Program-made: the position numbers and the translations under genes
From: Candidatus Iainarchaeum sp.
Lineage (GTDB): Archaea; Iainarchaeota; Iainarchaeia; Iainarchaeales; DTGL01
Direction of reading: 5' to 3'
DNA length: 14,187 bases
Assembly (NCBI GenBank): GCA_038736825.1
Contig: JAVYME010000028.1
Coordinates: 1 to 14,187 of the forward strand
In this document: positions 1 to 14,187 of the stretch, in pieces
How the letters are laid out: each line of letters begins with the position of its first letter
How positions within the stretch are numbered: position 1 is the stretch's first letter
The notes under the pieces: model-generated
Seen by the model: only the letters and a program-made list of their open reading frames with translations
The model's database searches: none
What the model was told of the DNA's origin: nothing

Positions 1-290
1 GCGGTTTTTTTCCCGAACCCAGCGAGTTTTTCAGCAAAAATCCAAAAATTTTTCCTCAAAAAAGGTTCTCCACCCATTATTGTTATCCTTGAAGTGTTTT
101 TTGAAAGACCCCATAGTTCAATAGTTTTAATATAGTCTTCAAGGATTGCATTCAATTGTTCCAATGAAAGCTCTTTTTCAAAATTTTTTTCAGAATAACA
201 GTGCTTGCATTTCAAGTTGCATTTTTCAGTAATATGCCATTGCAAGTGAAACGATTTTGGAATGTAATTCTCACTATCTTGTTTGACCAT
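1..290 (-). CDS. Radical SAM enzyme, N-terminal ~96 codons only (gene continues past the left window edge)
   Basis: Absent from the supplied ORF track because there is no stop inside the window. Manual translation of the reverse strand from the ATG at complement(288..290) gives MVKQDSENYIPKSFHLQWHITEKCNLKCKHCYSEKNFEKELSLEQLNAILEDYIKTIELWGLSKNTSRITIMGGEPFLRKNFWIFAEKLAGFGKKT... It carries a CX3CX2C motif (CNLKCKHC) and a GGEP SAM-binding motif. It lies 16 bp downstream of the 307..1299 gene on the same strand. Confidence 0.8.
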   Translation of the reverse strand, partial: MVKQDSENYIPKSFHLQWHITEKCNLKCKHCYSEKNFEKELSLEQLNAILEDYIKTIELWGLSKNTSRITIMGGEPFLRKNFWIFAEKLAGFGKKT

Positions 291-306
291 GCTCTTTTCC
301 CAAAAT

Positions 307-1299
307 TTACTGTTCTGGCCTGCCAATTGGGATTCGCCCTCTTGGCGATGGCTCTGCATAATTTAGCAATCCAATTTGGCACATCACTTCATCAAGCCTT
401 GAATATCTTTCCTTGAAGAACCGGCTGGCCAACAAATAATCTTCACTGGAATTTATGGGGCTTTCTTGACCACAAAACTGTTTTAAAAGGTAAAAATTGT
501 AGGCAGCGCAAACATTGCCTTTTTCTTTTTTAGCCATGCTTTCAAAAGACTTGCAAAAAATTGGCACAGCCTCGGTGTTTTTGGGTTTGCCGGCAGGAAC
601 TGACTGCAAAAGCAGCCTCAAAATGGTGGCTTTTTTTTTCATTGATTCCAGTGCTTTGCCTGTCTGGCTCGAATACTCTATGTTTATTGCGAGCACTTTT
701 TCAAAAAGTTTTGGGTTGTATGTTGTGCCTAGCTCTCCATAAACTAATTGGCATATTGTGATTCCTAGCACTGCGGGCAAATCGTTTTCTTCCAGCACTT
801 TTTTTGACTCTATTTGTTGCTCCCAATATTGCATTGCACTGGCAAAAGTCTCTTTGGCAAACAGTTCTGTTTTCAAGCCATCAGTGTTGCCTCTTTCTTT
901 AACAAAATAAGCATATTTGGACATGCAATAAGGCATTAAAACAGTGTAAGGTTCGCATTTTTCCAGTTCTAGGTTGTTGCACTCTTTTGCAAAAAAGCCC
1001 TCGGCAATTTTAGCATCATCCTTGTAGTCTTCGCCTTGAACTTGCAAGCCAAAATCATCTCTTAAGACATTTTTGACCACCCTATACTGGTACCAGCCAT
1101 AAGAAGAGCTTTCCGCCTCTGAAAGAAATGCCTTGGGTTCGAGTTCACTTGAAAAATACTGCTTTAACTCAGAGGCAGAGCTTTGCATTTCTGAAAAAAG
1201 CAGGAAAGGGTATAAGAAAAAAGCGAAAACTGCAAAGACGGCTGCCAGCACTATAGCAATTATTAGAAAATTTTTCCGCTTTGAATGTAGTGGCAGCAT
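307..1299 (-). CDS. Membrane-anchored protein of unknown function (one N-terminal TM helix, helical Cys-containing ectodomain)
   Basis: 330-aa ORF with an ATG start at complement(1297..1299). A KRK stretch is followed by the hydrophobic segment FLIIAIVLAAVFAVFAFFLYPFLLF. I recognise no catalytic motif. It is co-directional with, and 33 bp downstream of, the rSAM/SPASM gene. Confidence 0.6.
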   Translation of the reverse strand: MLPLHSKRKNFLIIAIVLAAVFAVFAFFLYPFLLFSEMQSSASELKQYFSSELEPKAFLSEAESSSYGWYQYRVVKNVLRDDFGLQVQGEDYKDDAKIAEGFFAKECNNLELEKCEPYTVLMPYCMSKYAYFVKERGNTDGLKTELFAKETFASAMQYWEQQIESKKVLEENDLPAVLGITICQLVYGELGTTYNPKLFEKVLAINIEYSSQTGKALESMKKKATILRLLLQSVPAGKPKNTEAVPIFCKSFESMAKKEKGNVCAAYNFYLLKQFCGQESPINSSEDYLLASRFFKERYSRLDEVMCQIGLLNYAEPSPRGRIPIGRPEQ

Positions 1300-1332
1300 A
1301 TCGCAATAGTAACCCCATTCAACTTTTATTTT

Positions 1333-3171
1333 TTATTCCCTCCAAGGGCATTGTGATTTTTTTGAGGTTTTTTTGAATTCAGAATATATCTCGTTTCTGT
1401 CAAAAAATTCGCTTATTTTTGGGCCTTTAACTCCACCACAATATTCAATTTCACCATTTTTTTCTTTGAAGAGTTCAAGGCACTCCAAGCAGTTTTTTGG
1501 AATGAAAAATTCTTCATAGAACTCCTTTTCCTTTTTTGCGTTCGCATCTGTTATTTTGACAGGTCGCGATATCTTGAATATTACCTTGTTTTTCTTCAAT
1601 GAATAAAGAAATGCCTTGAACCGAATTGAATCGCGAATACCAAGCCGGCCCCTGGTAATTGGGCAAAGCACAAAAAGCCTTATTTTTTCCCTGTGTTTTT
1701 TTGACGCCTCAACTATTTTTTTGGCTAGCTTTTCAAGGTCTGCCTTTGCGGGATCAAATTTCAAAAAAACTCCACTGGCTGAGTTCTTGCTGATTTCTGT
1801 TGAGAGTTCGAATTCGCTGAATTGCATGGAATAATAGAGTTTTTCACTCTTTTCCGACAAATAAGGCTTTATTTTTATGACATCGCGTTCCGCCAAATAT
1901 TTCATGAGTTGCAAGGTTTGCGTTTTTCTTTCCAGGCATCGTTCTCTGTCTGGTTTTGCCATATTGTTGTTTTTTTCCAGGTTTTTTAGGGGGCAGCCTC
2001 CCCAGCAAAGCTTGAAATCACAATCATAGCACTCGCTTTTTTTGTAGTAAGAGCGCAATTTTTTGATTTTTTTCCAGTCCATCAAAAATCCCTTTTTTCG
2101 GTTAAAGCAGCCAAGCACAAGTTGTTTCATTCCTTGGTGAATTTTCAGGTCATCTGTGTTTGAGTACATCAGGCAGCCAGAGACAGTTCCATCCGTGCCA
2201 AGGCAAAAATAGTTTCCAACTGAACAATACTGTGTTTTGCCCTTATATTCAAAGTAGTGTTCAACCGCAAGGCGGGATTTTAATCCAAAAGAATCGCAAA
2301 ACTCTTTCAGTTTCATTTGTGAATCTGCGAGCACCGCCCACTTATTGCGCTCTGAAGTTTTTATGAATTCGCAGCCAGCTCCCAGATCGCTAACTGTTGA
2401 GAAAACTATCACTGGGACCTCTAGGTTGTAAAAATATTTGAAGGTTTGCTCTTCTCGACCAACATGGTTTGAGGTAAGCGTGGTTTTTACCATAAATTCC
2501 TTGTTGTTTTTAACCAGTGTTTTTATTGTTTTTTCCACGGTGGCACTGCTCTTTCCGCCATTCCTGAGAGGTCTTTGTCTATTTTGAATTTCAGGCGGGC
2601 CGTCACAGGAAACTTGGAACCTGCCCATTCGATCCGCAATATCGGTTAAAAACTTTGGGTTGGTGGCACCGTTTGTTGAAAATTTGATTCTGGCAATTTT
2701 GAGTTTTTTTTCAATGGAACCCAAAGTTTTTTTCAATAGCGTGGGTTCAGTTGTCTGCTCTCCAGCAGAACTGAACATCACGTGGACTTCCTTGTTTTGT
2801 TGACCAATATATTTAATTCCAGCACTCAAGATTTCCCAATTTGAAGTTTTCTCCTCTCTTTTCTTTTCTTTGCCAAAGCAATATGTGCATCCAAGATTGC
2901 ACTTGCTTGTAATGACTGGCGAAAAAACATTAAAATAGCCTTTTTTGACAAAAGAGGGCTTTTTGTTTTTTGCTAGGAATTTTTTTCCAAGTGCCTCAAA
3001 GGCTTCTTTGTCCATGATGAAAAAGTTGTTTGAATTGCTACAAAAAGCCACCAATCGCCCTTTTTTTTCAAAAAGCAAGTGAAGAAAGGGATTATGTTTT
3101 GCGAAAGCCGCAAATATGTCTCGCTTGCTTTGCAAACAGGCCTGTGTTGCGCCTATTATTTCAACCTTCAA
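1333..3171 (-). CDS. Radical SAM/SPASM-domain peptide maturase (HxsB-like candidate) with a ~190-aa C-terminal extension
   Basis: 612-aa ORF. CX3CX2C motif in SPVITSKCNLGCTYCF. Twitch/SPASM-type auxiliary-cluster motifs: C-x11-G-x4-C (CSVGNYFCLGTDGTVSGC) and CX2CX4CX3C (CYDCDFKLCWGGC), plus a later RERC. The N-terminal ~85 aa before the cluster (LVAFCSNSNNFFIMDKEAFEAL) resembles the substrate-side N-domain common in peptide maturases. The annotated start is TTG (complement of caa at 3169..3171) and the first ATG is codon 53, so the exact start is uncertain. Confidence 0.85.
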   Translation of the reverse strand: MKVEIIGATQACLQSKRDIFAAFAKHNPFLHLLFEKKGRLVAFCSNSNNFFIMDKEAFEALGKKFLAKNKKPSFVKKGYFNVFSPVITSKCNLGCTYCFGKEKKREEKTSNWEILSAGIKYIGQQNKEVHVMFSSAGEQTTEPTLLKKTLGSIEKKLKIARIKFSTNGATNPKFLTDIADRMGRFQVSCDGPPEIQNRQRPLRNGGKSSATVEKTIKTLVKNNKEFMVKTTLTSNHVGREEQTFKYFYNLEVPVIVFSTVSDLGAGCEFIKTSERNKWAVLADSQMKLKEFCDSFGLKSRLAVEHYFEYKGKTQYCSVGNYFCLGTDGTVSGCLMYSNTDDLKIHQGMKQLVLGCFNRKKGFLMDWKKIKKLRSYYKKSECYDCDFKLCWGGCPLKNLEKNNNMAKPDRERCLERKTQTLQLMKYLAERDVIKIKPYLSEKSEKLYYSMQFSEFELSTEISKNSASGVFLKFDPAKADLEKLAKKIVEASKKHREKIRLFVLCPITRGRLGIRDSIRFKAFLYSLKKNKVIFKISRPVKITDANAKKEKEFYEEFFIPKNCLECLELFKEKNGEIEYCGGVKGPKISEFFDRNEIYSEFKKTSKKSQCPWRE

Positions 3172-3237
3172 AACACCACCAAAGCTAATAAATAGTTCTT
3201 TGGCAGCATCGTTTAAAAAGGAAGGTTTCTTACAGCA

Positions 3238-3597
3238 TTAGCTGCAGAAATCTATTGCACAAATCGCCCCGCAACTGTAATGGCTGTAGTGTGATGAGTG
3301 TGAGCTGTGTGATGAGTGTGAGAAGTGTGAGCCGTGTGCTGAGTGTGATGAATGCGAGGAGTGTGATGCGTGGTGTCCGTGTTTTGCAGTGACATTGCCT
3401 GCATTCCAGCTAACACTAAAATAATTTGAGTGTGCGGCTTCGACTTCGGGTAAAAGGTTTAAGATGGAAATCGAGCCCAAAAAGGCACCAATTGAAATCA
3501 TTTTGAATTTTGAAATTCCGCCTTTTTCTTCTATTAAAAAAGAGGACACCTTTCTTTTTATTTCTGGCAGTCTGTTCTTTATTTGTTTTTTCATCAA
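3238..3597 (-). CDS. His-Xaa-Ser repeat peptide (HxsA-like putative RiPP precursor, or a secreted His-rich peptide)
   Basis: 119-aa ORF whose first codon is TTG; the ATG at complement(3592..3594) gives 118 aa. A basic N-terminus (KKQIKNRLPEIKRK) is followed by a signal/TM-like segment MISIGAFLGSISILNLLPEVEA|A. The C-terminal part reads AKHGH-HAS-HSS-HSS-HSA-HGS-HFS-HSS-HSS-HSS-HYS-HYS-CGAICAIDFCS. It sits directly between rSAM genes on the same strand. Confidence 0.8.
   Translation of the reverse strand: MMKKQIKNRLPEIKRKVSSFLIEEKGGISKFKMISIGAFLGSISILNLLPEVEAAHSNYFSVSWNAGNVTAKHGHHASHSSHSSHSAHGSHFSHSSHSSHSSHYSHYSCGAICAIDFCS
3274..3381 (-). repeat. Coding period-3 repeat: HGH plus 11 in-register His-Xaa-Ser/Ala triplets
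   Basis: The plus strand shows imperfect 9/18-bp tandem units (gtgtgatgagtgtgagct x2, then variants). On the coding strand this reads CAC-NNN-TCN/AGC iterated. His is invariant at position 1 of all 12 triplets. Position 3 is Ser in 10 of 11 and Ala in one. Confidence 0.9.
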
Positions 3598-3625
3598 TAA
3601 TACAATCCTTTTAAACTTTAAATAT
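3598..3625 (-). promoter_or_regulatory. Possible internal TATA-like promoter immediately upstream of the HxS peptide gene
   Basis: In minus-strand orientation, right after the upstream stop codon: TAA-atatttaaagtttaaaaggattgtattattg-ATG. The TTTAAAG/TTTAAAA boxes lie about 13-27 nt upstream of the ATG. There is no clear SD sequence. Based on motif resemblance only. Confidence 0.25.
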
Positions 3626-4486
3626 TTATTGTTTTGTGGTGATTTTCCGTATTGGCTTGAATTCTTCTTCTCCGGCTAGTGGTGGATAAGAGCGCCAAAT
3701 CCTGCAACATTCGTTTTTTGCTTTGCAATAAAAGCATTTTTTTGCAAATTTTAGTTCTTTTTCCTGTTTTGTAATGCCTTTGGCGTGTTCCCAGTATTTG
3801 TTGCTTATTGTACACAAAGGGAAGTGGAACATTTTCACTTCCACTTTGTTTTTTTTCAGCACTTCAACTGCTTGTTGAACGAAAGGCACCAAGGTTTTAT
3901 AGTGCACAAAGAGGAGTTGCCGGTTAATAAATGCATTGCCAGTGTATTTTAGGTTGATGAAAACCACTCGAAAAACGCCTTTTAGTTCCCTTGCAATGAA
4001 TTCCGCTGTTTTTGCCAAATCTCGATAATTTTGCTTGCATACCAAGACCCTGACTTCTATTGCGAAACCGAGTTTTTGAAGGTTTTTTATTCCTTGAATT
4101 GTTTCGTTCCAGCTTCCACGGATTCCTGTCAGAAAATCGTGGGCTTTTTCTTCATGGCTTAATAGGGGAATGCCGAAAAAGAGGTTTTTGCCAGAAAATT
4201 TTTTGAATTGCATTGCATATTCTTTTTCTGCAAATTTTCTTCCATTGGTTACAATGAAGATTTCTCTTTCAGGGTTTTGTTCTAGAACAAATTCCACTAT
4301 TTGGGAGAGATTGGGTGAAAGAGTTGGTTCGCCTCCTGTTAGTCCAATGCATTCTTCTTCAGGTGTGCTTTTGATTTTTGCTTTTATTTGGTCTGCTGGC
4401 GGGTTTCCAAGCCAGGGCATCTGTCTTGTATCGTAAATGCAGAAAAGGCATTTGCTATTGCATTGAAATGTCACAGGAATGTCCAT
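3626..4486 (-). CDS. Radical SAM enzyme (small, N-terminal cluster; HxsC-like candidate), paralogue of 4487..5365
   Basis: 286 aa. CX3CX2C motif at residues 9-16 (QCNSKCLFC), GLTGGEPTL, VTNGR, and a C-terminal Cys cluster KKCFYCKAKNECC. Its ATG at complement(4484..4486) directly abuts the upstream stop codon (TAAATG). Confidence 0.85.
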   Translation of the reverse strand: MDIPVTFQCNSKCLFCIYDTRQMPWLGNPPADQIKAKIKSTPEEECIGLTGGEPTLSPNLSQIVEFVLEQNPEREIFIVTNGRKFAEKEYAMQFKKFSGKNLFFGIPLLSHEEKAHDFLTGIRGSWNETIQGIKNLQKLGFAIEVRVLVCKQNYRDLAKTAEFIARELKGVFRVVFINLKYTGNAFINRQLLFVHYKTLVPFVQQAVEVLKKNKVEVKMFHFPLCTISNKYWEHAKGITKQEKELKFAKKCFYCKAKNECCRIWRSYPPLAGEEEFKPIRKITTKQ

Positions 4487-5365
4487 TTATTTTCCCTTTA
4501 TTGCTTTGAATTCGTTTTCTCCTTTTTCTTTTAGGTATGCTTTTTCCACGCCAAAACATTTTTTTTCAAGAATGCATTTTTTGCATTCTGCGAGCTTTTT
4601 TTTGCCTTTCAGGATTTGTTTGTCAAGGGAAGTTTTGCCTTCAAACCAGTAAACCTCTGTTTTCAGTTCGCAAACTGTATTGTCAGCCTTTTGCGGGATA
4701 ATGCAAGGCGGCACATTGAGCGCCCAAACCCCGGCACTGCCTTTTTCAGCAATTTCAATGGCTTTCAAGAGATAGGGTGCTGTTTTGGAATACGCTGGCA
4801 CCAAGTGTTTGTTTTGTGAAAGGTTTCCGTCAATGCTTGGAAAGATGAGGCAAAACATTTTTGGCTTGAATGCCAAAACTTTTTTCACTATTGCTGGCAA
4901 TTGTTTGAAGTTGAGGGCATTTATTACAATGTTTGCCCTTATTTCCCCCCCTTTTTCCTTGAAATTTTTAATGCCTTGCATTAATTCTGAAAAACAGCCG
5001 TTCACTTGCGTCAGAAAATCGTGTGTTTCCTTGTCCGCGCCATGAATGGAAAAAATCGCGCTGTTTAATCCGCTTTCAAGCATTTGTTCTGTAAAATTTT
5101 TGTCTGAAAACATTCTACCATTGGTTGTAACGGAAATTTTTTGAAAGCCTTGTTCTTTTGCAAAGTGGACTATTTCAAATATGTCTTTTCGTATGGTGGG
5201 TTCTCCACCTGTAAAGCAAATTTCTTCAGCTCGACCTTTGGCTGAAATAACTTCTTTTTTGACTTGCTCTAATTGCTTGAAATTCCTTGACTTGTGTACA
5301 GAGCAAAAAAGACAGTTATTGTTGCAAGCAGCGCCAAGCACAATTTCAATTTTTGCCAGTCTCAT
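4487..5365 (-). CDS. Radical SAM enzyme (small, N-terminal cluster; HxsC-like candidate), paralogue of 3626..4486
   Basis: 292 aa with an ATG start. CX3CX2C motif (ACNNNCLFC), CFTGGEPTI, TTNGR, HDFLT, QGIKN (the last three are shared with the paralogue), and a C-terminal ECKKCILEKKC motif. Confidence 0.85.
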   Translation of the reverse strand: MRLAKIEIVLGAACNNNCLFCSVHKSRNFKQLEQVKKEVISAKGRAEEICFTGGEPTIRKDIFEIVHFAKEQGFQKISVTTNGRMFSDKNFTEQMLESGLNSAIFSIHGADKETHDFLTQVNGCFSELMQGIKNFKEKGGEIRANIVINALNFKQLPAIVKKVLAFKPKMFCLIFPSIDGNLSQNKHLVPAYSKTAPYLLKAIEIAEKGSAGVWALNVPPCIIPQKADNTVCELKTEVYWFEGKTSLDKQILKGKKKLAECKKCILEKKCFGVEKAYLKEKGENEFKAIKGK

Positions 5366-5399: not shown

Positions 5400-5774
5400 T
5401 TATTCGCCAAGCTGTCTTGCCACAATTTCAAGGCATTGGTTCCTTATGCCTTCTTCGGTTACTTTGTTGCATAAGGCTTTGTCGTTATTCAAAACACCAA
5501 AGCAGTAATTCTTTATGTTTGCGTTGTAAATGTAATTGCAATAATTGTTGTTTCTTGCTTCATAGGCTTCCTGGAAAACGCACCAATCAGATTTTCCGCT
5601 TGCAAGTCCGCTGCACTTGCTCAAATCAAAGCTTGACTCGAGTTGTGGGCAATAAGTATTTGTATTACAATCTGGCTTAGCTTGCAATCCTAAAAAAAAC
5701 CCAGCCAAAAAGAAAACTATTGACGTTAGAACTAAAATTGCAAATCTCTTAAAATCAAAAGCAATTTTTTCCAT
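5400..5774 (-). CDS. Small membrane-anchored/secreted Cys-rich protein, unknown function
   Basis: 124 aa with an ATG start. Hydrophobic segment FAILVLTSIVFFLAGFFLGL, then 10 Cys with a recurring C-x(7-12)-C spacing (YCNYIYNANIKNYCFGVLNNDKALCNKVTEEGIRNQC). It is the first gene of the minus-strand block, 34 bp upstream of the first rSAM gene. Confidence 0.6.
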   Translation of the reverse strand: MEKIAFDFKRFAILVLTSIVFFLAGFFLGLQAKPDCNTNTYCPQLESSFDLSKCSGLASGKSDWCVFQEAYEARNNNYCNYIYNANIKNYCFGVLNNDKALCNKVTEEGIRNQCLEIVARQLGE

Positions 5775-5834
5775 GAAAACCCTATCCTATATGTGTTGTT
5801 TTCCTTTTTAATCTTTTTCAGCCACTTTATTTCC
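5775..5834. promoter_or_regulatory. Divergent intergenic region between the rSAM operon (minus) and the GYPECC gene (plus)
   Basis: It is the only non-coding DNA between the divergently oriented genes, provided the plus-strand gene starts at the ATG at 5835. No specific motif was confidently identified. Confidence 0.3.
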
Positions 5835-6851
5835 ATGCCTTTTGCTGAAAAATCCATTGCAGAGGCAATGGCAAGGCTTTCCAGTGAAAGCCGCGCTTTT
5901 TCTGACAAACAACGACTGAAAAAAGGAAAGTTTTATTATCCGCCATGCATTAAAGGCCATTTTTCTTTGCTCGAACTTTTGGCGCTTAAAAACGGCTTAA
6001 AGCCAGCGGTAAGCAATAAGGTGCCATTTACGCCTGAAGCCTGGCTGGCACTAAAAAAAGGGATTAATGAAATGGGTTTTCTTTGCGGGCACACTAGATT
6101 CAAGTACCTTATAAACACAATCCAAGACCTTTGCGAGCCAATTCCTCTTGATGACCCGCGCCTTGGGGAAGTTTATGCGATTGCAGCCAAAGACTTTGAA
6201 ACCATTAAAAGGGCAGCGGATGCCTATGCCAACGACACAACTGAATTTGGTAGGCTAATGGGTTATCCTGAATGCTGTCTGGCGTTCGGAAAGAGCTTGT
6301 GCAATAATGTTGGAATTAAAAGCAAAGTAGAGCAAGACTATGTTTGGTCGCGCATTTATTTTCGCTCTTATCGCAATTCAACGAACTTTTCCAAGTGGTT
6401 GAATGTTTATTCTGGCTTTGCTTTGATTCATCACATTCCATGCCATTTGAATTGCCCGGAAAGCAAGAAATACGCTCAAACCTTGTACGGTTTGCTGGAA
6501 AAGGAAAACGCAAAACTGGCAAAATTGTATGATTTTTTCATGCACTTGCCAGTATTGTTTTGGAATTGTGCGGACTCGATTTTATTCCAAGGCGAGTTTG
6601 AAAAGGGAGTTTTTCACTACTGGGATTGTTTTCCAAAAATCTCTTCAGATTCATTTTATGTTTCCGCACCAGACTTTTCATTAGCCAAAAGGCTTTCCGG
6701 CTATGCTGAATTAGTCAAAAAAGGCAACAGCCTTAAATTATCAGATAAGTGCATTGGTGTTTTCAAGGACAACAAAAAGATTGGCATTATTCCAAAACAA
6801 TTTGAATTTGAATGCATTCTGGTAAAACCTGACACTGACTTGTCAGAGTAA
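5793..6851 (+). CDS. G[YF]PECC / H-x-PC-x3-C family protein (uncharacterised, putative metal- or Fe-S-binding), divergent paralogue 1
   Basis: The 352-aa track ORF starts at GTG 5793, and the first ATG at 5835 (MPFAEKS...) is the more likely start. Motifs shared with 9469..10362 and 7624..8488: FSLLELLALKNGLKPAVS, GRLMGYPECCLAFGK, HHIPCHLNCPESKKY. Confidence 0.75.
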   Translation: MLFSFLIFFSHFISMPFAEKSIAEAMARLSSESRAFSDKQRLKKGKFYYPPCIKGHFSLLELLALKNGLKPAVSNKVPFTPEAWLALKKGINEMGFLCGHTRFKYLINTIQDLCEPIPLDDPRLGEVYAIAAKDFETIKRAADAYANDTTEFGRLMGYPECCLAFGKSLCNNVGIKSKVEQDYVWSRIYFRSYRNSTNFSKWLNVYSGFALIHHIPCHLNCPESKKYAQTLYGLLEKENAKLAKLYDFFMHLPVLFWNCADSILFQGEFEKGVFHYWDCFPKISSDSFYVSAPDFSLAKRLSGYAELVKKGNSLKLSDKCIGVFKDNKKIGIIPKQFEFECILVKPDTDLSE

Positions 6852-6853
6852 GC

Positions 6854-7075
6854 CTATTTGGAAAGCGCTATTACATTGTTTGAAAACCAGCCAGCAAGTT
6901 CTTCCAAGTCAGTTCCTTTTTCTGGAAAAAATTCAATAAAGGTGAAATGCCCTTTTTTTGATTTTTTGAATTTGATGTTTTTTGGAACAATTTCAAGTGC
7001 TTTTTGCAGGGCTTCTTCAAAATAAATGCCTTCCCTGAATTTCATTCGCACGCTTTTGCGTTTTATTTCAATCAA
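6854..7075 (-). CDS. Small HxsD-like protein (short paralogue of the N-domain of 7079..7567)
   Basis: 73 aa from TTG, or 63 aa from the ATG at complement(7043..7045) (MKFREGIYFEEALQKA...). ...HFTFIEFFPEKGTDLEELAGWFSNNVIAL parallels ...ILVTIKARDKKRGAKALEEIANHFNNELINY of the upstream gene. It lies 3 nt after that gene's stop codon. Confidence 0.5.
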   Translation of the reverse strand: MIEIKRKSVRMKFREGIYFEEALQKALEIVPKNIKFKKSKKGHFTFIEFFPEKGTDLEELAGWFSNNVIALSK

Positions 7076-7078
7076 TGC

Positions 7079-7567
7079 TTACACCTTTGGCTTTTTCAAG
7101 CCCTTGGCTTTTTTTGGAGTCCATGGTTCTGCAATTCCTTCAGGGTCCTTCAAGTAAAGGTCTTCGTCTTCATTTTCAGGCATTCGAATTTTTTTTGCTT
7201 TTTCTTCAAGCACTGGCTCTAAAGGGTTTTCTATTGTTTGCTCGCTTGAAAGGTTTGTTGCCAGTGCTCGCTGGATTATTGCCTCTCTTATTGCTTGGTT
7301 CCTTGCAGCTTGAACTGCATAAACGGAATAATTGATTAATTCGTTGTTGAAATGGTTTGCTATTTCCTCCAACGCCTTTGCTCCTCGTTTTTTGTCTCGC
7401 GCTTTTATTGTCACCAAGATTTCTTTTGCAGGATCTCCGTCCAAGAAAAAATAGGCTTTGTCAAGCAAGACATATGCTGCAGAATAAACAACTTCAAGCG
7501 TGAACACTTTTGGGTTCACTGAAACAATTGCTTTGCCATGTTTTGGAAAGAGCTTAACGTGCTCCAT
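7079..7567 (-). CDS. HxsD-like small protein with an acidic/basic C-terminal tail
   Basis: 162 aa with an ATG start. The pattern VFTLEVVYSAAYVLLDKAYFFLDGD...ILVTIKARD...FNNELINYSVYAVQAARNQAIREAIIQRAL resembles, from memory, the LLNDYxLRE-type signature of the His-Xaa-Ser system protein HxsD. Not verified by HMM search. Confidence 0.5.
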   Translation of the reverse strand: MEHVKLFPKHGKAIVSVNPKVFTLEVVYSAAYVLLDKAYFFLDGDPAKEILVTIKARDKKRGAKALEEIANHFNNELINYSVYAVQAARNQAIREAIIQRALATNLSSEQTIENPLEPVLEEKAKKIRMPENEDEDLYLKDPEGIAEPWTPKKAKGLKKPKV

Positions 7568-7623
7568 AAATAAAATATCTACAATAAAGAATAAAAGCGT
7601 TTTTCGTACAATTTTGCGAAAAA

Positions 7624-8488
7624 TTATTCAAATCTGAGGATTTTGGCCGGTTTTTTTATTTCTAGTATTTTTTTATCGCTTTTGAATACTTGGAATCTTA
7701 TATCATCCGTAATAACCTTATCGCCTATTTTTATTTTTTCAAGCACTTTTTTTGGGGTTCTGGTGGGAAACTCAAGAACTGAATCGTATGTGGCTTCGTT
7801 TTCAATTTGATCTTTGCGACTTTCATTAAGAATCACAAAGTCGAGTTGGTTGAAGAAAACAAATGTTTTTTTTAAAGTGTTCTCTATTTCTTTAGCGAAC
7901 TCCGGCATTTCATTTTGCAAAACGTTTAGTTTTTTTCCTGATTTTTATGCTTTCTTTACAGTTAAATGAGCATGGAAAGTGAAAGATAAGAAACATTGCT
8001 TTTTTCCAAATTTCAAAAAATCGTTCTTTATCCCAGCCAGAGCCAATGTTTTTTGAAATCGCTGAGGCTAAGATGTTGGTTTAAAAAGGAAATGGTTTTT
8101 CAGAATTTTCAGCGATTGACCATTCGATTGCTTTGCCCTCTTTGCCAGCCAGGGCGTGCTTTTTTATGCTGCGCACGCAGCATTCAGGGTAACCAAAAAG
8201 TCGGCCGATGTGTTCTCGGTTTTCTGTTTGCTCAGCCAAAACCATTTCTTTAAGTAGGGCAGTGTCTTTTGAGATGTAGAGCACTTTGTTTTTTCCAAGC
8301 CCATGATAGTTTTGGAAATAGTGGATTTTGGCATAAATGTTTTGTCTTGCACATTCTTCGAGGAAGAGATCAATTTGGGTTTGATGTTGAGAACTAAGTA
8401 TAACTCTTGAAATTGGCTTGATATCATACTTTATTCCAAAAAACTCTAAAGGAGTAAATCCGATATTTAATATTCTGGACTCAACCAT
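7624..8488 (-). pseudogene. Disrupted G[YF]PECC family paralogue (in-frame TAA plus 1-nt frameshift)
   Basis: Track ORFs 8081..8488 (N-terminal part, ...GRLFGYPECCVRSIKK...) and 7624..7920 (C-terminal part) align collinearly with the N- and C-terminal parts of the intact 297-aa paralogue. After the TAA at 8081..8083 the same frame continues TNILASAISKNIGSGWDKERFFEIWKKAMFLIFHFPCSFNCKESIKIRKKTKRFAK* (stop at 7910..7912). Removing one base of the T7 run at 7930..7936 restores ...RKKLNVLQNEMPEFAKEIENTLKK, which matches ...GKKYKRVLEKEAPLLAEQAKNALKK. The repaired length of ~287 aa compares with 284 aa for the intact copy. Confidence 0.75.
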
Positions 8489-8539
8489 TCTTCCAAAACT
8501 CCAATATTTTACTCAACACGGGGCGTTTATATTTTTTTT

Positions 8540-9448
8540 TCACCTTTCTTTCATCATTTTTTTGATCTCTTTAACCATTTTTTTAATATCTTTAGCTTGT
8601 TTTTTTCCAGCACTAGCAAGCGATAAAAACTGGCAAAATTTGAACAAAAGATAGGTTTTTTTTTCAAAAGCGTAATTTTCTCCAATTTTGCCCCCCATTT
8701 CAGCATAAGTTTTCAAAAAATGTTTTGAAAGGTCTGGTTTTACTGCTTTCAATGCGTTTTCAGTGATTGCAACATCAAAAAGGCAGTGACCCAAAAAGGC
8801 GTTTTTCCAGTCAATAACTGCATTGATTTTTCTGGATTTGTTGACTAAAATATTTTCAAGCCACAAGTCTCCATGACAAATGCAAGGATTAACCTTTTCA
8901 GGCAATGGGGTGTTATAAACAAAGAAAAGGATTTTTTTCGCAAAACTTTCTTTCACAATTCCATTTTTCACTGCAATTTGAAGATTTATTTCAATGTTTT
9001 TTCTGACAAACGAACCCCAGCTTTGAGTTCTGTCTTTCCATTCCAAATCTGTTTTTTTGGCTTTGTAGTTGGGCTTTACAGAGTGAAGTTTTGCAAGAAT
9101 TTCAGCAATTTGTTCAATCAAAAATATTCTTTCGGGTTCGCTCATTTTGGCCCATTGCGCTGTAACAGGTGTTCCTTCAACGAATTCAAATTCCAGCAAG
9201 CAAAAATCCGGGGATTTTTTTAAAGAAAAGATTTTTGGCACTGGAAGGTGGTTCTCGAATGCAAATTGCTGGAATGCTTTAGCGCGCAACACTTTTTTTT
9301 TGTCAAACCAAATCCAGCAAACCCTTTTTTTTCCATTTGGCAAAAACACTTTAAACATTGAATTGCTTTTTTTAAGTGGAAAAACTCGGCTTTTTTTTCC
9401 AAAGGCTTTTTTTGCAAAAACAATTTTGCTTTCCAAAGAGTTCATCAT
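8540..9448 (-). CDS. Aminoglycoside-phosphotransferase / choline-kinase fold (protein-kinase-like) phosphotransferase
   Basis: 302 aa with an ATG start. Catalytic-loop signature CHGDLWLENILV and the downstream VIDWKNAFLGHCLFDVA (the HGDLxxxN ... iDWe...D pattern of the APH family). The substrate is not inferable from sequence. Confidence 0.8.
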   Translation of the reverse strand: MMNSLESKIVFAKKAFGKKSRVFPLKKSNSMFKVFLPNGKKRVCWIWFDKKKVLRAKAFQQFAFENHLPVPKIFSLKKSPDFCLLEFEFVEGTPVTAQWAKMSEPERIFLIEQIAEILAKLHSVKPNYKAKKTDLEWKDRTQSWGSFVRKNIEINLQIAVKNGIVKESFAKKILFFVYNTPLPEKVNPCICHGDLWLENILVNKSRKINAVIDWKNAFLGHCLFDVAITENALKAVKPDLSKHFLKTYAEMGGKIGENYAFEKKTYLLFKFCQFLSLASAGKKQAKDIKKMVKEIKKMMKER

Positions 9449-9468
9449 TCAAACCACAAAATTTTTGC

Positions 9469-10362
9469 TTATTTTTTTAATTCCAAAATTTTTTGCCTGT
9501 TTTTAAAGACAGCGAGTGCTCCATTTTCCGCTTTAATGCGATTGCCTTGCCTGATTTTTTCCAAAATTTTTTTCGAAGTCGTAGTGGGGAATTCAAAAAC
9601 CGATTCATAGAATGCCTCGTTTTCGCTTTTGCCTTCAATGGCATCATTTAATAGAACAAAATTGAAACTTCCAAAATAAACCATTGTTTTCTTTAAAGCG
9701 TTTTTCGCTTGCTCTGCCAACAAAGGCGCCTCTTTTTCCAAAACTCTTTTGTATTTTTTTCCCATTTCAATGCTTTTATTGCAGTTAAAAGAACACGGAA
9801 TATGGTAAATGAAATAAAAGCTTTTGTTTCGTGCCTCTTTCAGGCAATTGCATTCAAGAGCATTTTTTGGCTTGAAATCCGAGGCAGTGTAAAGAACGAA
9901 ATTGTTGTAAAAAGACAAAGGCTTTTTGGAATTTTTTAATACTTCAAATGCAATATTTGACCGGTTTTCCGCCTTTCCGAAAAAAAACTCAATACAGCAT
10001 TCTGGAAAGCCAAAAATCCGCCCAATTTTTTTCACATCACGCGCTTTTTCCGCTTCAATTAATTCTTCAATGGTTTTCATGCGTTTGCAAACATAAAGCA
10101 TTGTGGTGTCGGGCCAAGCCCCCGCAAAATTTTCAAAATATTCCAGTTGCCATTGCAAGCCAAGCCTTTCACATTTTTCCCTGAACTTTTTAAACCGCGT
10201 TCCAAAAGATGCTTCTTTTGGATTAACACTCATTCTAGAAATAGGCTTAACTCCATGCACTAATCCCAAAATTTCCAGTGGCGAAAAACCCATTTCGTCA
10301 CGCCAAGAGAAACAGTTTGCCATAACCGAAAACTCTATCAAACCAATTAAAAAAATAACCAA
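9469..10362 (-). CDS. G[YF]PECC / H-x-PC-x3-C family protein, intact paralogue 2
   Basis: The 297-aa track ORF starts at TTG. The ATG at complement(10321..10323) (MANCFSWRDEMGFSPLEILGLVHGVKPISR, 284 aa) aligns with the start of the pseudogene copy. Motifs: GRIFGFPECCIEFFFGK and YHIPCSFNCNKSIEMGKKY. Confidence 0.8.
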   Translation of the reverse strand: MVIFLIGLIEFSVMANCFSWRDEMGFSPLEILGLVHGVKPISRMSVNPKEASFGTRFKKFREKCERLGLQWQLEYFENFAGAWPDTTMLYVCKRMKTIEELIEAEKARDVKKIGRIFGFPECCIEFFFGKAENRSNIAFEVLKNSKKPLSFYNNFVLYTASDFKPKNALECNCLKEARNKSFYFIYHIPCSFNCNKSIEMGKKYKRVLEKEAPLLAEQAKNALKKTMVYFGSFNFVLLNDAIEGKSENEAFYESVFEFPTTTSKKILEKIRQGNRIKAENGALAVFKNRQKILELKK

Positions 10363-10484
10363 AAGCCTTTTTTTGCAAAAACCAAAAGTGTTTTTTTGCC
10401 AAGCAAACCTTTAAATTAAAAGAATATATTAATAGATACGAGAATTTAACTTGGCATCTCTTAAAGGTTCCCAAGGGAGAAAAA
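10363..10484. promoter_or_regulatory. Divergent intergenic region with an AT-rich TATA-like block and an SD-like GGGAGA before the large surface-protein gene
   Basis: AT-rich block tttaaattaaaagaatatattaatag at ~10409..10436. GGGAGA at 10475..10480 lies 4 nt before the ATG at 10485. Confidence 0.35.
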
Positions 10485-10568
10485 ATGAAACAACAAAATA
10501 GGCAGCACCCTTCAAGGATTTTGTTGTTTATCGCTTTAGCCTTGCTTGCGCCATTTTATTCCTTTGCC
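10485..10568 (+). other. Predicted Sec signal peptide of the large surface protein
   Basis: n-region KQQNRQHPSR, h-region ILLFIALALLAPF, c-region YSFA, with likely cleavage before QTCTG. Confidence 0.6.
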
Positions 10569-13500
10569 CAAACTTGCACTGGCGGTCTTTCTGGGAGCAA
10601 CCTACAAAACTGCACTGGAACAGACTATTCTCCTTGCCATAAATGTGATGTTAACGACATGCAGTTCGAAATAAGGGCACCAGATGGCGTGACAACTAGT
10701 GGTTGGCAGACAATGACTTATTCTACAGGTTCGGGCACATGCTCTGCAGGTTGCGCTGACGAAACTTGGACCAAAAGCTATGGTTATACTTTTTGCCCAC
10801 AAGAAGGCACTTATTCAGCTAGAATAAAAGCTGGCGCTCAAAACAGTTCATCTTATGGTTGGGAGACAAGCGATTGGAACACTTCTTTTTACACTGTAAA
10901 CTGGGATTCTTCTCAAGGTTGGTGCACTTGCAAAACTGGGAGCAGTGCAAACTGGTTTGCAACAGTTTCAGGTGGCAGCAACGGCCAGTGCTGTGGGGAT
11001 GACGGCGCAAACGACAATTTCTATTACCATAGTGCAGAGCCCTCCACTGCAACCTCTCTGGATTGCACTCGTTGCTTGAATGGAACAAAATATGGTCCAA
11101 TAACATTGTATGGCAATGGTTATTTGTCTGGTTCTGGTACCTCTCGAACTTGTTATTATGGAGACATTAATTGCACTGCCGGTTCTGCTGAAAGTGGCAC
11201 TAGCACAATAGTGTATGGCTATGGCCATTGGTCCGGTTCTAGTCCAATAACTGATACAAGCGGGGTTTGCTATTATGGAACGCCTTCTTGTGGGGATGGA
11301 TACTATTCACATGGTTCCTTTGGCACTTATTATGGCAATGGTTATACAAATGGCAATCCTACAACGGATACAAGCAGTCTCTGTTATTATGGGGATATTT
11401 CTTGTTCTAATGGTTTTGCTTCCAATGGTGCCTCAACAACAGTTTATGGCAACGGTTTTGTCTCAGGCACAACATGCTATTATGGCAACTGGGTTTGTGC
11501 AAATGATACTGCAAGCAATGGGGCTAGTTGCACTCTTGCATGTGGTGGTCTTGGCACAAGTTGTTGTCCAACTCAAAACATTTTCCGCAACACAATAACT
11601 TGCTCTGAAAGCGGTTGTGGTTATAGTGATCATGATAGGGATTCTGGAGAAAGCTATTGCATTTCCAACGCGGGTGGTTGCATGGCATTTGTTTGGGATT
11701 CGTTGGGCAACAAGTGCTGTGGTGATGATGGTGCAGGCGACAACTTTTGCACTTTGGGTGGTGGTTCCTGCATAAATGGTTCTTGGAATGCAAACCATTG
11801 TTTTGACGGCATAAAAAATTGTGATGAAACTGCAGTTGACTGCGGTGGAAGCGATTGCTCGGCATGCGTGTCAGATAACAATCCGCCAACAACAACACAT
11901 GATGCCAACCAGGAATGGCAGACAACAAATCAAACTATTACTTTGATGTGCAGTGACGGTTCAGAGGTTGGATCCACAGGTTGTGCTCACACTTATTATT
12001 GCATTGATGATTCTAACACTTGCAATCCCACAATTGAAGGAACCACAATTCAAGTAAGTTGTATTGTTGGCGATGTTAACCGTGTTTTTGTGAGGTTTTA
12101 TTCTATTGACAATGCTAACAATGCAGAGCAAGTAAAAAGTGTTTTTATTAGAATTGACAAGCAAAACCCTGTCACAACTGCAATTGCTCCAACTGATTGG
12201 CAGGATGCAAATACAGCAATAACCCTTTCATGTTCTGATGGCGCTGGGGCTGGTTGTTTTGCTGTCTATTTCCGTGTTGATTCTAATCCGTCAAAAAATG
12301 TTTCTTTTGGTTCTTGGACCAGCTATGAGGCTCCAATAATTTTTTCATCTGATGGAAACTATTTGATAGAGTTTTATTCAAAAGATAATGTGTTTAACAC
12401 TGAAACAACCAATGTGGCGCTTGTTTTAATCGATAAACGCTTTGCTTCTCTGGGTAATGAAAGCCTTTATTCTAGTTATACAGATTATAATGGCGTCATA
12501 GTTGTTCCAATTACAGTGGATGGCAACTACCGAATTGACTATAATTCAACTGATATTATTGGCAACATTGAACAGATTCGCACTGGTTGGGCAGCATTGG
12601 ATAAAACACCGCCTTCAACAACAAATGACTTGAACACTGCTTGGCAGAGACAGAATTTTTCAATAACGCTTTCATGCAGTGATGCAACGTCGGGTTGTGC
12701 TCTCACGCGCTATAGAATTGATTTGGATGACAGCGAAAATATTTCAATGGGTGCTTGGCAAAATTACTCTTCACCCATAAACATTTCCTCAGATGGGAAC
12801 TGGGCAATTGACTATAATTCAATGGATGTTGCAGGCATGCGCGAAAGCATTCGCACGATTTATGCCCTTCTTGACAAAACCGCTCCAATAGTAAGTCATG
12901 ATGCAAACACGGCTTGGGTGAACGAAGATCAGGTAGTGCATTTAACTTCAGTTGATACAACATCTGGCATAAATGCAACTTATTATTGTGTTTCTGATGC
13001 AAACAATTGTATTCCCTCTACTAGTGGCAATATGGTGAATGTTACTTGTACTGCCAATTCAATATGTCACAACTATGTGAGATATTATGCTATTGATAAT
13101 GCAGGCAATCAAAGCAATGTTAGCGCCACAAGCGTTATCAGAATAGATAAAGAAAATCCTCTTACAACAACTGATGCTAATACTCTTTGCCAGAAAACAG
13201 ACCAAAACATCGTGATTTCTTCAAGTGATGGTTCTGGTTCTGGAATTGCTGGCACTTATTATTGTGTTGATGACTCTAATTCTTGCACTCCAAGCACGAG
13301 CGGCACTATAGTGACTGTTTCTTGTGCGACTGGTTCAACTTGTCAAAAGTTTGTTCGGTATCGCTCTCAAGACATTGCTGGCAATACTGAAAGCATTCGC
13401 TCTATTTTGTTAACAATTGACAAGCAGGCGCCTACAACAACAGATGATGCAAACAGTCAATGGCAGAGTGCAAACCAAAGCATTACTTTGACTCCTACTG

Positions 13501-14187
13501 ATGGCTCTGGCTGTGGAGTGCTTGCAACTTATTATTGTGTTGATTCTGACAATTCTTGCACTCCGTCTACAGTTGGTTCTTCTGTTAGTGTTTCTTGTGC
13601 TGAAAACTCTGTTTGTCAGAAATATGTGCGATATTATTCAGTTGACACTGCAGGCAATAGTGAAACAATAAAATCAGTGCTGATAAGGGTTGACAGGCAA
13701 CCTCCAATCACACAACATGATGCAAATACTGCTTGGCGGAATTTTAATCAAACTGTGCATTTTACCCTAAATGATGGTTCTGGTTGTGGCGGGAATGCAA
13801 TATATTATTGCATTGATGACTCAAATTCTTGCAATCCAAACATTTTGGACACTTCGGCAAATATCACGTGTGATGCCAATGCCGTATGCCAAAAATATTT
13901 GCGTTTTAAGGGAATTGACTGTGTTGGCAACCAAGAACAAGTAAGAGCAGTGCTAATAAGAATTGACAAGAATGCCCCCCTAACTTCAAGCAATGCTCCA
14001 ATAAATTGTGTTTCCTCAGACCAACAAATAGCCTTGACTCCGATTGATGGATCTGGCTCAGGAGTGCTTGCAACTTATTATTGTGTTGATTCTGACAATT
14101 CTTGCACTCCGTCTACAGTTGGTTCTTCTGTTAGTGTTTCTTGTGCTGAAAACTCTGTTTGTCAGAAATATGTGCGATATTATTCAG
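10485..14187 (+). CDS. Very large secreted Cys-rich surface/adhesin-like protein with tandem Ig-like (beta-sandwich) repeats; 3' partial (runs off window)
   Basis: Absent from the ORF track because there is no stop in the window. I translated the frame by hand from the ATG at 10485 to 14186 and found no stop (~1234 codons). It begins MKQQNRQHPSRILLFIALALLAPFYSFA|QTCTGG... (signal peptide). Repeats carry the generic ...IDK-x-AP-TTT ... W ... TL ... DGSG ... YYC ... VRYYS-x-D-x-AGN-x-E ... IRIDK pattern typical of bacterial/archaeal Ig-like cell-surface domains. All minus-strand track ORFs in this region are antisense shadows. Confidence 0.85.
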   Translation, partial: MKQQNRQHPSRILLFIALALLAPFYSFAQTCTGGLSGSNLQNCTGTDYSPCHKCDVNDMQFEIRAPDGVTTSGWQTMTYSTGSGTCSAGCADETWTKSYGYTFCPQEGTYSARIKAGAQNSSSYGWETSDWNTSFYTVNWDSSQGWCTCKTGSSANWFATVSGGSNGQCCGDDGANDNFYYHSAEPSTATSLDCTRCLNGTKYGPITLYGNGYLSGSGTSRTCYYGDINCTAGSAESGTSTIVYGYGHWSGSSPITDTSGVCYYGTPSCGDGYYSHGSFGTYYGNGYTNGNPTTDTSSLCYYGDISCSNGFASNGASTTVYGNGFVSGTTCYYGNWVCANDTASNGASCTLACGGLGTSCCPTQNIFRNTITCSESGCGYSDHDRDSGESYCISNAGGCMAFVWDSLGNKCCGDDGAGDNFCTLGGGSCINGSWNANHCFDGIKNCDETAVDCGGSDCSACVSDNNPPTTTHDANQEWQTTNQTITLMCSDGSEVGSTGCAHTYYCIDDSNTCNPTIEGTTIQVSCIVGDVNRVFVRFYSIDNANNAEQVKSVFIRIDKQNPVTTAIAPTDWQDANTAITLSCSDGAGAGCFAVYFRVDSNPSKNVSFGSWTSYEAPIIFSSDGNYLIEFYSKDNVFNTETTNVALVLIDKRFASLGNESLYSSYTDYNGVIVVPITVDGNYRIDYNSTDIIGNIEQIRTGWAALDKTPPSTTNDLNTAWQRQNFSITLSCSDATSGCALTRYRIDLDDSENISMGAWQNYSSPINISSDGNWAIDYNSMDVAGMRESIRTIYALLDKTAPIVSHDANTAWVNEDQVVHLTSVDTTSGINATYYCVSDANNCIPSTSGNMVNVTCTANSICHNYVRYYAIDNAGNQSNVSATSVIRIDKENPLTTTDANTLCQKTDQNIVISSSDGSGSGIAGTYYCVDDSNSCTPSTSGTIVTVSCATGSTCQKFVRYRSQDIAGNTESIRSILLTIDKQAPTTTDDANSQWQSANQSITLTPTDGSGCGVLATYYCVDSDNSCTPSTVGSSVSVSCAENSVCQKYVRYYSVDTAGNSETIKSVLIRVDRQPPITQHDANTAWRNFNQTVHFTLNDGSGCGGNAIYYCIDDSNSCNPNILDTSANITCDANAVCQKYLRFKGIDCVGNQEQVRAVLIRIDKNAPLTSSNAPINCVSSDQQIALTPIDGSGSGVLATYYCVDSDNSCTPSTVGSSVSVSCAENSVCQKYVRYYS
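11151..11500 (+). repeat. Four degenerate ~31-39-aa coding repeats, each starting C-Y-Y-G-x3-C
   Basis: In-frame TG[TC]-TAT-TAT-GG[AGC] at 11151, 11268, 11382 and 11475 (CYYGDINC, CYYGTPSC, CYYGDISC, CYYGNWVC), separated by Gly/Ser/Thr/Tyr-rich linkers containing (V/Y)YGNG(Y/F). Confidence 0.7.
13515..13641 (+). repeat. 127-bp perfect direct repeat, copy 1
   Basis: ggagtgcttgcaacttattattgtgttgattctgacaattcttgcactccgtctacagttggttcttctgttagtgtttcttgtgctgaaaactctgtttgtcagaaatatgtgcgatattattcag is identical to 14061..14187 (offset 546 bp = 2 repeat units). Confidence 0.9.
14061..14187 (+). repeat. 127-bp perfect direct repeat, copy 2 (truncated by the window end)
   Basis: Base-for-base identical to 13515..13641. 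The identity begins after a t/a mismatch at 13514/14060 and is still running at the last base of the window. Confidence 0.9.

Follow-up and report, generated by a model that had tools for sequence, protein, structure and literature searches.

The HXS system of Pseudomonadota (HxsABCD; families TIGR03976-03979) is an antiphage system whose role has only recently been shown and depends on His-Xaa-Ser (HxS) effectors matured by radical S-adenosylmethionine (rSAM) enzymes (Nat Commun 2026, PMC13128918). Its canonical form consists of four proteins in >99.8% of the systems, without a DUF483 protein, and in E. coli its small rSAM enzyme, HxsC, forms a complex with HxsD, a small non-catalytic protein on which it depends (PMC13128918). 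The stretch of DNA analysed here (the window) is a complete contig of 14,187 bp from a metagenome-assembled genome (MAG) of a Candidatus Diapherotrites (DPANN) archaeon, in which three genes coding for DUF483-like proteins (copies A, B and C) were found beside genes of HXS type. In common with HXS, the window contains an HxS-repeat precursor, an HxsC-like rSAM enzyme, an rSAM enzyme in the HxsB position and HxsD; in addition to the canonical set, it carries an HxsC4-like rSAM enzyme, the three DUF483-like genes, an APH-family kinase and an HxsD-related protein. Profile matches of these genes bore out the original prediction, made on this DNA before the present analysis, that HxsD-like genes and a kinase are interleaved with the DUF483-like copies next to rSAM and HxsA genes (1333-5365). 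The HxsB model TIGR03978 gave 48.5 bits with the window enzyme (cut-off 370) and the HxsC model TIGR03977 was also below its cut-off, the two enzymes being related to, but not equivalogs of, these families. As judged by its gene content, the window locus is an expanded archaeal relative of HXS that lies outside the canonical four-gene system; with its relatives it makes up an expanded, non-proteobacterial HXS-like version with a recurring extra component, the DUF483-like protein. The gene neighbourhoods, fusions and phage modules described below give good support to an association of this DUF483 clade with the maturation of short-period repeat proteins by rSAM enzymes.

The assignment to DUF483, named only as a possibility in the original prediction, was correct: the Pfam model PF04467 matched copy C with 26.9 bits (gathering threshold 25), copy A (21.2 bits) and the N-terminal part of copy B (22.2 bits) falling just below the threshold. 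Among 94 profile-defined relatives, 91 matched Pfam DUF483 (best E=1.1e-10). The central ~100 aa of the window proteins, with the GYPxCC and HxPCx3C motifs, fit this model, which covers only 122 central positions, whereas the family unit observed here is ~290 aa long and consists of three parts. No function or structure is attached to the Pfam family. An exhaustive profile search (E<=1e-3) gave 1,665 cluster representatives, mostly of 270-320 aa and aligned over their full length, and what is new for this large domain of unknown function is a context, part of the family recurring in rSAM/repeat-protein systems. No DUF483-like protein had a match in PADLOC or PHROGs, and a literature search found no work on DUF483 other than PMC11437467, word-start searching giving mostly DUF483x families. 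A relation to HxsD was ruled out by comparison with an alignment of about ten HxsD proteins from these loci (hhalign probability 0.07-0.1%).

Residue conservation was counted in 237 aligned homologues. P107, C109 and C181 were invariant (237/237 each), and C110 was Cys in 236/237 sequences. At position 177 Cys was found in 226 sequences and His in the remaining 11, no other residue being observed, and the His of the HxPC motif was located at position 174 or displaced by one residue. Each of K26, G105, Y106, N141 and S184 was kept in at least 90% of the aligned members. The conservation of C109, C110, C177, C181 and His174 is in agreement with the metal-type Cys/His site suggested in the original prediction. 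Since C177 is exchanged only for His, which is a signature of a metal ligand, the Cys/His set (PxCC plus H-x-P-C-x3-C) is predicted to form a metal site, most likely occupied by structural Zn, which is somewhat likelier than an Fe-S cluster. No match to Fer4, SPASM or twitch models was obtained with the DUF483-like proteins in Pfam and NCBIfam scans.

Related loci were obtained by a scan of one genome per GTDB species, from which 79 were fetched with a 12-sequence alignment subset; this retrieval is biased to LLGYPECC and HxPCS[YF]. The loci span DPANN archaea, Elusimicrobia, Myxococcota, Acidobacteria, bacteria of the Candidate Phyla Radiation (CPR) and others. When the window was added to them, HxsC/HxsC4-like rSAM enzymes were the commonest neighbour family (30 of 80 loci, 90 proteins). 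The density of rSAM genes was 2.6 per 10 kb within 1 kb of a DUF483-like gene and 0.33 per 10 kb at a distance of 8-10 kb, a drop of about 8-fold. An rSAM gene was located at <=1 kb in 22/81 loci, and 48/81 loci (about 60%) had none within 10 kb. In a quick neighbour-joining distance tree the window copies clustered with members for most of which 2-6 rSAM genes were found at distances of up to 3 kb. Gene maps showed up to seven small rSAM genes per locus, often with overlapping stop and start codons. The gene spacing resembles that of an operon, and in L017 the DUF483-like gene overlaps the flanking rSAM genes by 1 and 4 nt. The partner rSAM enzymes begin directly at the CxxxCxxC motif and have no N-terminal recognition domain.

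Direct fusions of the two kinds of domain were found as well. In P0011, P0062, P0076 and a 609-aa protein of L014 an N-terminal rSAM half is followed by one or two DUF483-like domains, and in the three fusions scanned the rSAM half was best matched by HxsC4. The HxsC4-like enzyme of the window is of the type that is fused in these proteins: its full-length alignment to the rSAM portion of P0062 showed 35% identity (E=1e-52), as compared with only 23% for the window HxsC. Gene content most similar to that of the window was observed in two related DPANN loci, L017 from Iainarchaeum and L080 from a metagenome; L080 encodes the closest relative of copy C (53% identity). All three loci have HxsD, several small rSAM genes, an HxsA-like precursor and a large repeat protein; in addition, the HxsB-position enzyme is shared with L017, and the APH kinase and the HxsD-related gene (HxsD_rel) are shared with L080. 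An accessory link of the DUF483-like genes to the rSAM/peptide operon had been put forward in the original prediction, with gene-neighbourhood statistics as a means of checking it, and this link is supported by the fusions, the neighbourhoods, in which rSAM genes are both the commonest neighbours and enriched near the DUF483-like gene, and the synteny. Tandem double DUF483-like domains were found in P0011 and P0098, and 2-4 DUF483-like copies in several related loci; the presence of several copies is a conserved trait of related loci and tandem-domain proteins and not a peculiarity of this contig.

The same components are found in phages. The Thermus phages Cumys and phiMa have a DUF483 gene immediately after an rSAM gene, together with a third, unknown gene; the authors who described this 'rSAM module' guessed DNA modification, and DUF483 fusions to rSAM and methyltransferase domains are listed in InterPro (PMC11437467). 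The phage DUF483 protein was homologous to the window family (hhalign probability 98.6%) and has His at the C177 position. Cumys_13, the product of the third gene, is a long His-x-Asp/Ser/Thr repeat protein analogous to HxsA, which the authors of PMC11437467 did not note. All three elements of the phage module, namely a DUF483 homologue, an rSAM enzyme and a His-rich short-period repeat protein, are present in the window, the difference being that the phage rSAM enzyme is SPASM/AmcB-like, whereas the small rSAM enzymes of the window are HxsC/HxsC4-like. The best matches of the phage-type rSAM enzymes were cyclophane-forming peptide maturases (AmcB, SPASM type), a likeness to the triceptide or three-residue cyclophane rSAM enzymes HtkB, HaaB and YhhB, which cross-link aromatic-X-X motifs including His-X-X (PMC11499958). 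The DUF483-linked repeats HxS, HxD, HxT and YxD fit this aromatic-X-X type; a DUF483 partner is not mentioned in that paper.

Orthologues of the phage rSAM enzyme were also found beside DUF483-like genes and repeat proteins in the cellular loci L057 (a Thermoprotei archaeon, HxD repeats), L062 (a Woesearchaeote), L067 (a Dehalococcoidia bacterium), and L068 and L048 (both Nealsonbacteria), the repeats of L048 being YxDYGD behind an HxsA-like leader. Among 12 viral contigs from IMG/VR, 11 had an rSAM gene adjacent to the DUF483-like gene or one gene off, and 9 had a Cumys_13-like repeat protein. Some viral copies of the domain are joined to a class I S-adenosylmethionine methyltransferase (L088, L090, L091 and L094) or to a GT2 glycosyltransferase (L089). 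The phage repeat proteins contain an N-terminal repeated motif, WVEGxxLHYIDxxGxxR, and long tails of His-x-Asp/Ser/Thr repeats, and in Cumys the genes immediately preceding the module are annotated as encoding a baseplate protein and a tail collar fibre protein. The repeat protein and this tail-gene neighbourhood suggest that the Cumys module produces a post-translationally modified virion protein rather than modified DNA.

HxsA-like precursors were identified in the window, L017, L033, L053 and L080. They have in common a leader, KxKxFLxEExGxISK, followed by a hydrophobic segment, an arrangement that resembles an archaeal class III (prepilin-like) signal. The window precursor (3238-3597) has 9 HxS motifs within 30 aa and ends in CGAICAIDFCS, with three Cys; its matches to the NCBIfam families HxsA3 and HxsA4 were below the cut-offs. 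Two His/Thr-rich open reading frames (ORFs) (window 3252-3416, minus strand; L017 10606-10851, plus strand) were discarded as alternative-frame readings of HxS repeat DNA. A similar membrane protein of ~350-365 aa was found in L001, L002, L005, L017, L025, L033 and L048, and the copies of L001 and L017 are A24 prepilin/preflagellin peptidases according to Pfam, so that the A24 peptidase could be the leader peptidase; no A24-type peptidase gene was found on the window contig. L001, L002 and L005 (uncultured archaea and an unclassified bacterium) contain at least seven small HxsC/HxsC4-like rSAM genes in a row, together with a B12-binding rSAM gene, PMT_2-type glycosyltransferases, a carbamoyltransferase and 1-4 DUF483-like genes, and no His-repeat ORF was found in them within 10 kb.

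The kinase is a recurrent partner. In L080 the DUF483-like gene and the APH gene (3961-4920, plus strand) overlap by 4 nt, and in L033 an APH-HxsC4-like rSAM fusion (8137-9957, plus strand) is encoded directly upstream of a DUF483-like gene. In the NCBIfam comparison the APH kinase weakly resembled LxmK, a class V lanthipeptide kinase (E=3e-4). Because the kinase is fused to an rSAM enzyme or coupled to a DUF483-like gene in these loci, the pathway may include a phosphorylation step on the Ser-rich precursor or an intermediate.

All three ORFs reported as paralogues in the original prediction are present in the window and code for one protein family. The ORF of copy A is open from a GTG at 5793 (5793-6851, plus strand), the database protein P0004 starting at the ATG at 5835; that of copy C comprises 9469-10362 (minus strand), and its annotated product P0001 starts at 10323. 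Copy B, described as disrupted in the original prediction, indeed carries two lesions: an in-frame TAA at 8081-8083, where copy C has the Tyr of 'SFYNN', and a +1 frameshift caused by a single inserted nucleotide in the A7 run at 7930-7936. Repair of both restored a full-length protein of 287 aa with every motif intact, and copy B is either a very recent pseudogene or the result of a sequencing or assembly error. Recoding or read-through was dismissed, since the nonsense codon and the homopolymer frameshift are independent and a pseudogene or sequencing error is simpler. The halves of copy B are stored as separate public-database proteins, P0005 and P0019. The three motif blocks reported for the copies were as described, except for Ala in place of Gly in the N-terminal block of copy A and F-H-F-P-C in place of an [HY]-H start in copy B. 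Pairwise BLASTP gave 24% identity between A and C (E=3e-14), 26% between A and B (E=4e-10) and 37% between B and C (E=3e-62), similarities well outside what chance would give, and no nucleotide similarity was detected between copies B and C, indicating that the copies are ancient paralogues rather than recent local duplications; at 24-37% amino acid identity they are old and diverged. Copy A represents a distinct conserved A-type subgroup of about 335 aa with PCHLNC or PCHLDC, orthologues of which are P0023, P0024, P0041, P0096 and those of L001/L004, where the A-type was found together with the shorter DUF483-like type.

An AlphaFold2 model of copy C built from the 94-sequence alignment had a pLDDT of 93.4 and a pTM of 0.89. 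Its N-terminal part is alpha/beta, its central part helical and its C-terminal part beta; both Cys motifs are in the central part, at helix N-termini and in loops, with C109/C110 at a helix N-terminus. PDB sequence searches with copy C, a 6-sequence profile and the 94-sequence profile gave chance matches only, and Foldseek searches of PDB and BFVD with the model gave nothing at E<=1e-3. The best PDB fold match, the NleE methyltransferase (E=0.22, TM 0.26/0.35), and further matches to scattered Rossmann methyltransferases over 60-80 columns were regarded as not meaningful. To judge from these comparisons, there is no solved structural relative that gives a handle on function. A housekeeping enzyme, the identity that the original prediction had regarded as contrary to an rSAM-related role, did not emerge: profile and fold searches gave no significant enzyme match, the rSAM linkage is present, and the Cys are kept across homologues. 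The DUF483-like proteins are predicted to be cytoplasmic, having no signal peptide or transmembrane segment.

RiPP recognition elements (RREs; PqqD-like domains) are non-catalytic, occur free-standing or fused to diverse tailoring enzymes of a single pathway, and present the precursor to these enzymes. The reading that we prefer, and to which we give about an even chance, is that the DUF483-like protein is a cytoplasmic, metal-stabilised, non-catalytic subunit for docking or recognition, by which tailoring enzymes are brought to the repeat precursor. It would dock onto the small HxsC4-type rSAM enzymes, which have no domain before CxxxCxxC, and also onto other tailoring enzymes such as the adjacent APH kinase, and would recruit or present the HxsA-like precursor for modification, two or more paralogous copies probably working together. 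This would be an RRE-type logic in an unrelated and structurally new protein. The likeness is one of functional logic only: the DUF483-like protein is about three times larger and has the predicted Cys/His metal site, no PqqD/RRE family match was found in the Pfam and NCBIfam scans, and the PDB Foldseek search gave no significant match. Fusion to three unrelated catalytic domains (rSAM, methyltransferase and GT2), together with coupling to a kinase, favours substrate recognition, the lack of an N-terminal recognition domain in the partner rSAM enzymes favours a separate docking subunit, and the tandem double domains and multi-copy loci suggest that copies act together. The HxsC-HxsD complex of E. 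coli (PMC13128918) is a precedent for such a partner subunit. Metal binding, complex formation and the recruiting role are what we infer from these data taken together.

Several observations weigh against this recruiting role. The strictly invariant CC pair, taken with the polar residues Y106, N141 and S184, could equally belong to an active site; HxsD, the partner of HxsC in E. coli, is already encoded in the locus; the numbers of DUF483-like and rSAM genes are not 1:1; and, as the loci were fetched by LLGYPECC/HxPCS patterns, the percentages given above are not an unbiased census. Moreover, sizeable clades have no rSAM neighbour: a DPANN clade of ~278 aa, a CPR (Patescibacteria) clade and some Elusimicrobia. 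The neighbourhood of the DPANN clade is conserved and includes TYW3, a methyltransferase of the wyosine pathway, in 4 loci and a small methyltransferase of class I in 11; this is a hint that the clade has another partner, possibly one that serves methylation of tRNA or protein. The CPR genes adjoin unrelated genes. On account of these clades the basic biochemical property of the family is probably more general than HXS-type systems. One further protein, P0147 (676 aa, among the cluster representatives), combines DUF362, two 4Fe-4S ferredoxin domains and a DUF483-like domain that lacks the conserved His and has Asn at 174; it is the only hint of a redox context for the domain.

The main alternative is that the DUF483-like protein modifies the repeat precursor as an enzyme in its own right, within the same pathway and by Zn-thiolate or Cys/His/Asn chemistry. 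It might, for example, activate a thiol or hydroxyl once Ser has been phosphorylated by the adjacent kinase, hydrolyse its substrate or remove the leader, or carry the rSAM product through a second step; a Cys-His-Asn protease and a LanC-like Zn cyclase are low-probability variants of this alternative. We consider an enzyme unlikely, with the following in its favour: Y106, N141 and S184 are near-invariant beside the Cys/His set and resemble an active site, C109/C110 are placed at a helix N-terminus in the model, the gene is coupled to that of the APH kinase, the window precursor ends in three Cys, and in the minimal phage module, made up only of the repeat protein, the rSAM enzyme and DUF483, the last could supply a second activity. 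However, no significant sequence or fold similarity to known enzymes was found (the best Foldseek match being that to NleE), Cys-rich sites in which Cys and His are interchangeable are more often structural, the related loci already have an A24 peptidase for leader cleavage, and fusion to three different catalytic domains is better explained by a recognition module. Next in rank is an Fe-S protein that serves the small rSAM enzymes as a dedicated electron donor or carries an auxiliary cluster for them. The four conserved Cys including the CC pair, the association with and fusion to rSAM enzymes, the ferredoxin-domain fusion P0147 and the hosts, mostly uncultured lineages known only from MAGs (DPANN, Elusimicrobia and CPR) and presumably largely anaerobic, are consistent with an Fe-S role. 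It is made distinctly improbable by the absence of Fer4, SPASM and twitch matches, by the fusions to a methyltransferase and to GT2, neither of which needs electrons, by the clades that have no rSAM neighbour, and by a three-part build of ~290 aa, conserved towards both termini, which far exceeds the needs of a redox module.

The clades beside TYW3/methyltransferase genes or unrelated genes, and the large share of sampled loci without an rSAM gene within 10 kb, could also be taken to mean that the family is an independent housekeeping protein placed in the rSAM locus by coincidence or shared mobility. For the clade of the window this is very improbable, since four independent rSAM fusions, the adjacency in 11/12 viral contigs, the distance-dependent enrichment and the translational coupling are incompatible with chance. 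The presence of several rSAM genes and several DUF483-like copies per locus, and the invariant CC pair, would suit yet another explanation, in which the DUF483-like proteins either serve the rSAM enzymes as substrates, with the CC motif as one possible target, or provide immunity to, or chaperone, the mature product. It is the explanation to which we attach least credence: a well-folded protein of ~290 aa with a metal-type ligand pattern is an improbable substrate, an enzyme fused to its own substrate would be unusual, the repeat proteins are present as obvious substrates, and the DUF483-like protein is cytoplasmic, whereas the product is predicted to be exported.

A wider proposal, which we make only tentatively and with less confidence than the docking role, is that DUF483 is a structurally new Zn- or Fe-S-dependent recognition or co-catalytic subunit, unrelated to RRE, and the third, indispensable member of those rSAM systems in which His/Tyr-x-Ser/Asp/Thr repeat proteins are cross-linked. 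If so, a widespread three-part module of repeat protein, rSAM enzyme and DUF483 would extend from the HXS-like loci of DPANN and Elusimicrobia to phage tail/baseplate loci, and the phage module may harden or functionalise a virion or cell-envelope protein instead of modifying DNA. We suggest that the Thermus phage 'rSAM module' be re-read as a protein maturation module. Should the recruiting role be true, DUF483 would also serve as a genome-mining handle for new rSAM-modified repeat proteins.

The features of the window and the coordinates of the corresponding elements in other loci are listed in Table 1.

Table 1. Features of the window and of related cellular and phage loci (window positions count from its first nucleotide; other coordinates refer to the locus named).
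Locus	Feature	Coordinates	Strand	Remarks
Window	rSAM gene, 5' part, cut by contig end	3..362	-	product with CxxxCxxC motif
Window	330-aa protein	307..1299	-	N-terminal hydrophobic segment
Window	rSAM/SPASM maturase, 612 aa, HxsB position	1333..3171	-	orthologue at same position in L017
Window	HxsA-like His-Xaa-Ser repeat precursor	3238..3597	-	conserved leader, hydrophobic segment, HxS repeats
Window	HxsC-like rSAM enzyme	3626..4486	-	TIGR03977, 207.8 bits (equivalog cut-off 267.9)
Window	HxsC4-like small rSAM enzyme	4487..5365	-	NF038332, 131 bits
Window	124-aa protein, hydrophobic N-terminus, many Cys	5400..5774	-	between rSAM genes and copy A
Window	DUF483-like copy A, 338 aa, P0004	5835..6851	+	GYPECC, HHIPCHLNC
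Window	HxsD-related small protein	6854..7075	-	NF038315, 19.6 bits, weak (cut-off 41)
Window	HxsD	7079..7567	-	TIGR03976, 55.5 bits (cut-off 50)
Window	DUF483-like copy B, disrupted	7624..8488	-	repaired product 287 aa
Window	APH-family kinase	8540..9448	-	Pfam APH, 78 bits; 20 nt downstream of copy C
Window	DUF483-like copy C, 284 aa, P0001, NCBI locus tag QXK06_04865	9469..10323	-	GFPECC, YHIPCSFNC
Window	large Cys-rich repeat protein	10485..14187	+	N-terminal hydrophobic segment; runs off contig end
L017	HxsA-like precursor	10428-10841		
L080	HxsA-like precursor	11147-11511		
L033	HxsA-like precursors	12658-12945 and 2189-2458		
L053	HxsA-like precursor	2157-2507		
L048	HxsA-like precursor	7644-8444		
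L083 (Cumys)	phage repeat protein	1110-2141		
L091	phage repeat protein	1-1308		
L092	phage repeat protein	8079-9425		
L094	phage repeat protein	3286-4170		
L095	phage repeat protein	3985-4572		
L032	conserved neighbourhood of DPANN clade without rSAM	8265-8825		
L037	conserved neighbourhood of DPANN clade without rSAM	10602-11156		
About 10 further DPANN loci	conserved neighbourhood of DPANN clade without rSAM			

The 124-aa Cys-rich protein had no homologue in any other locus compared, and the counterpart in L080 of the HxsD-related protein scored 36.1 bits. Because an rSAM gene is cut at the left end of the contig and has counterparts in L004 and L005, the maturation system probably extends beyond the window. 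The truncated rSAM product and the 380-aa rSAM enzyme of L005 have the motif FHLQWHITE[KR]C in common. The 380-aa enzymes of L004 and L005 are the top HxsB-profile matches in their own loci, and that of L004, an rSAM/SPASM protein with TIGR04340 (ACGX system) as its best NCBIfam match, adjoins an A-type DUF483 gene. In the large Cys-rich protein at the other end of the contig, internal repeats of roughly 90 aa were recognised by eye. Partial homologues of it were found at the same position beside DUF483/HXS-like genes in L080 (998 aa) and L017 (1,991 aa), and it may be part of the system or of its cell-surface context.

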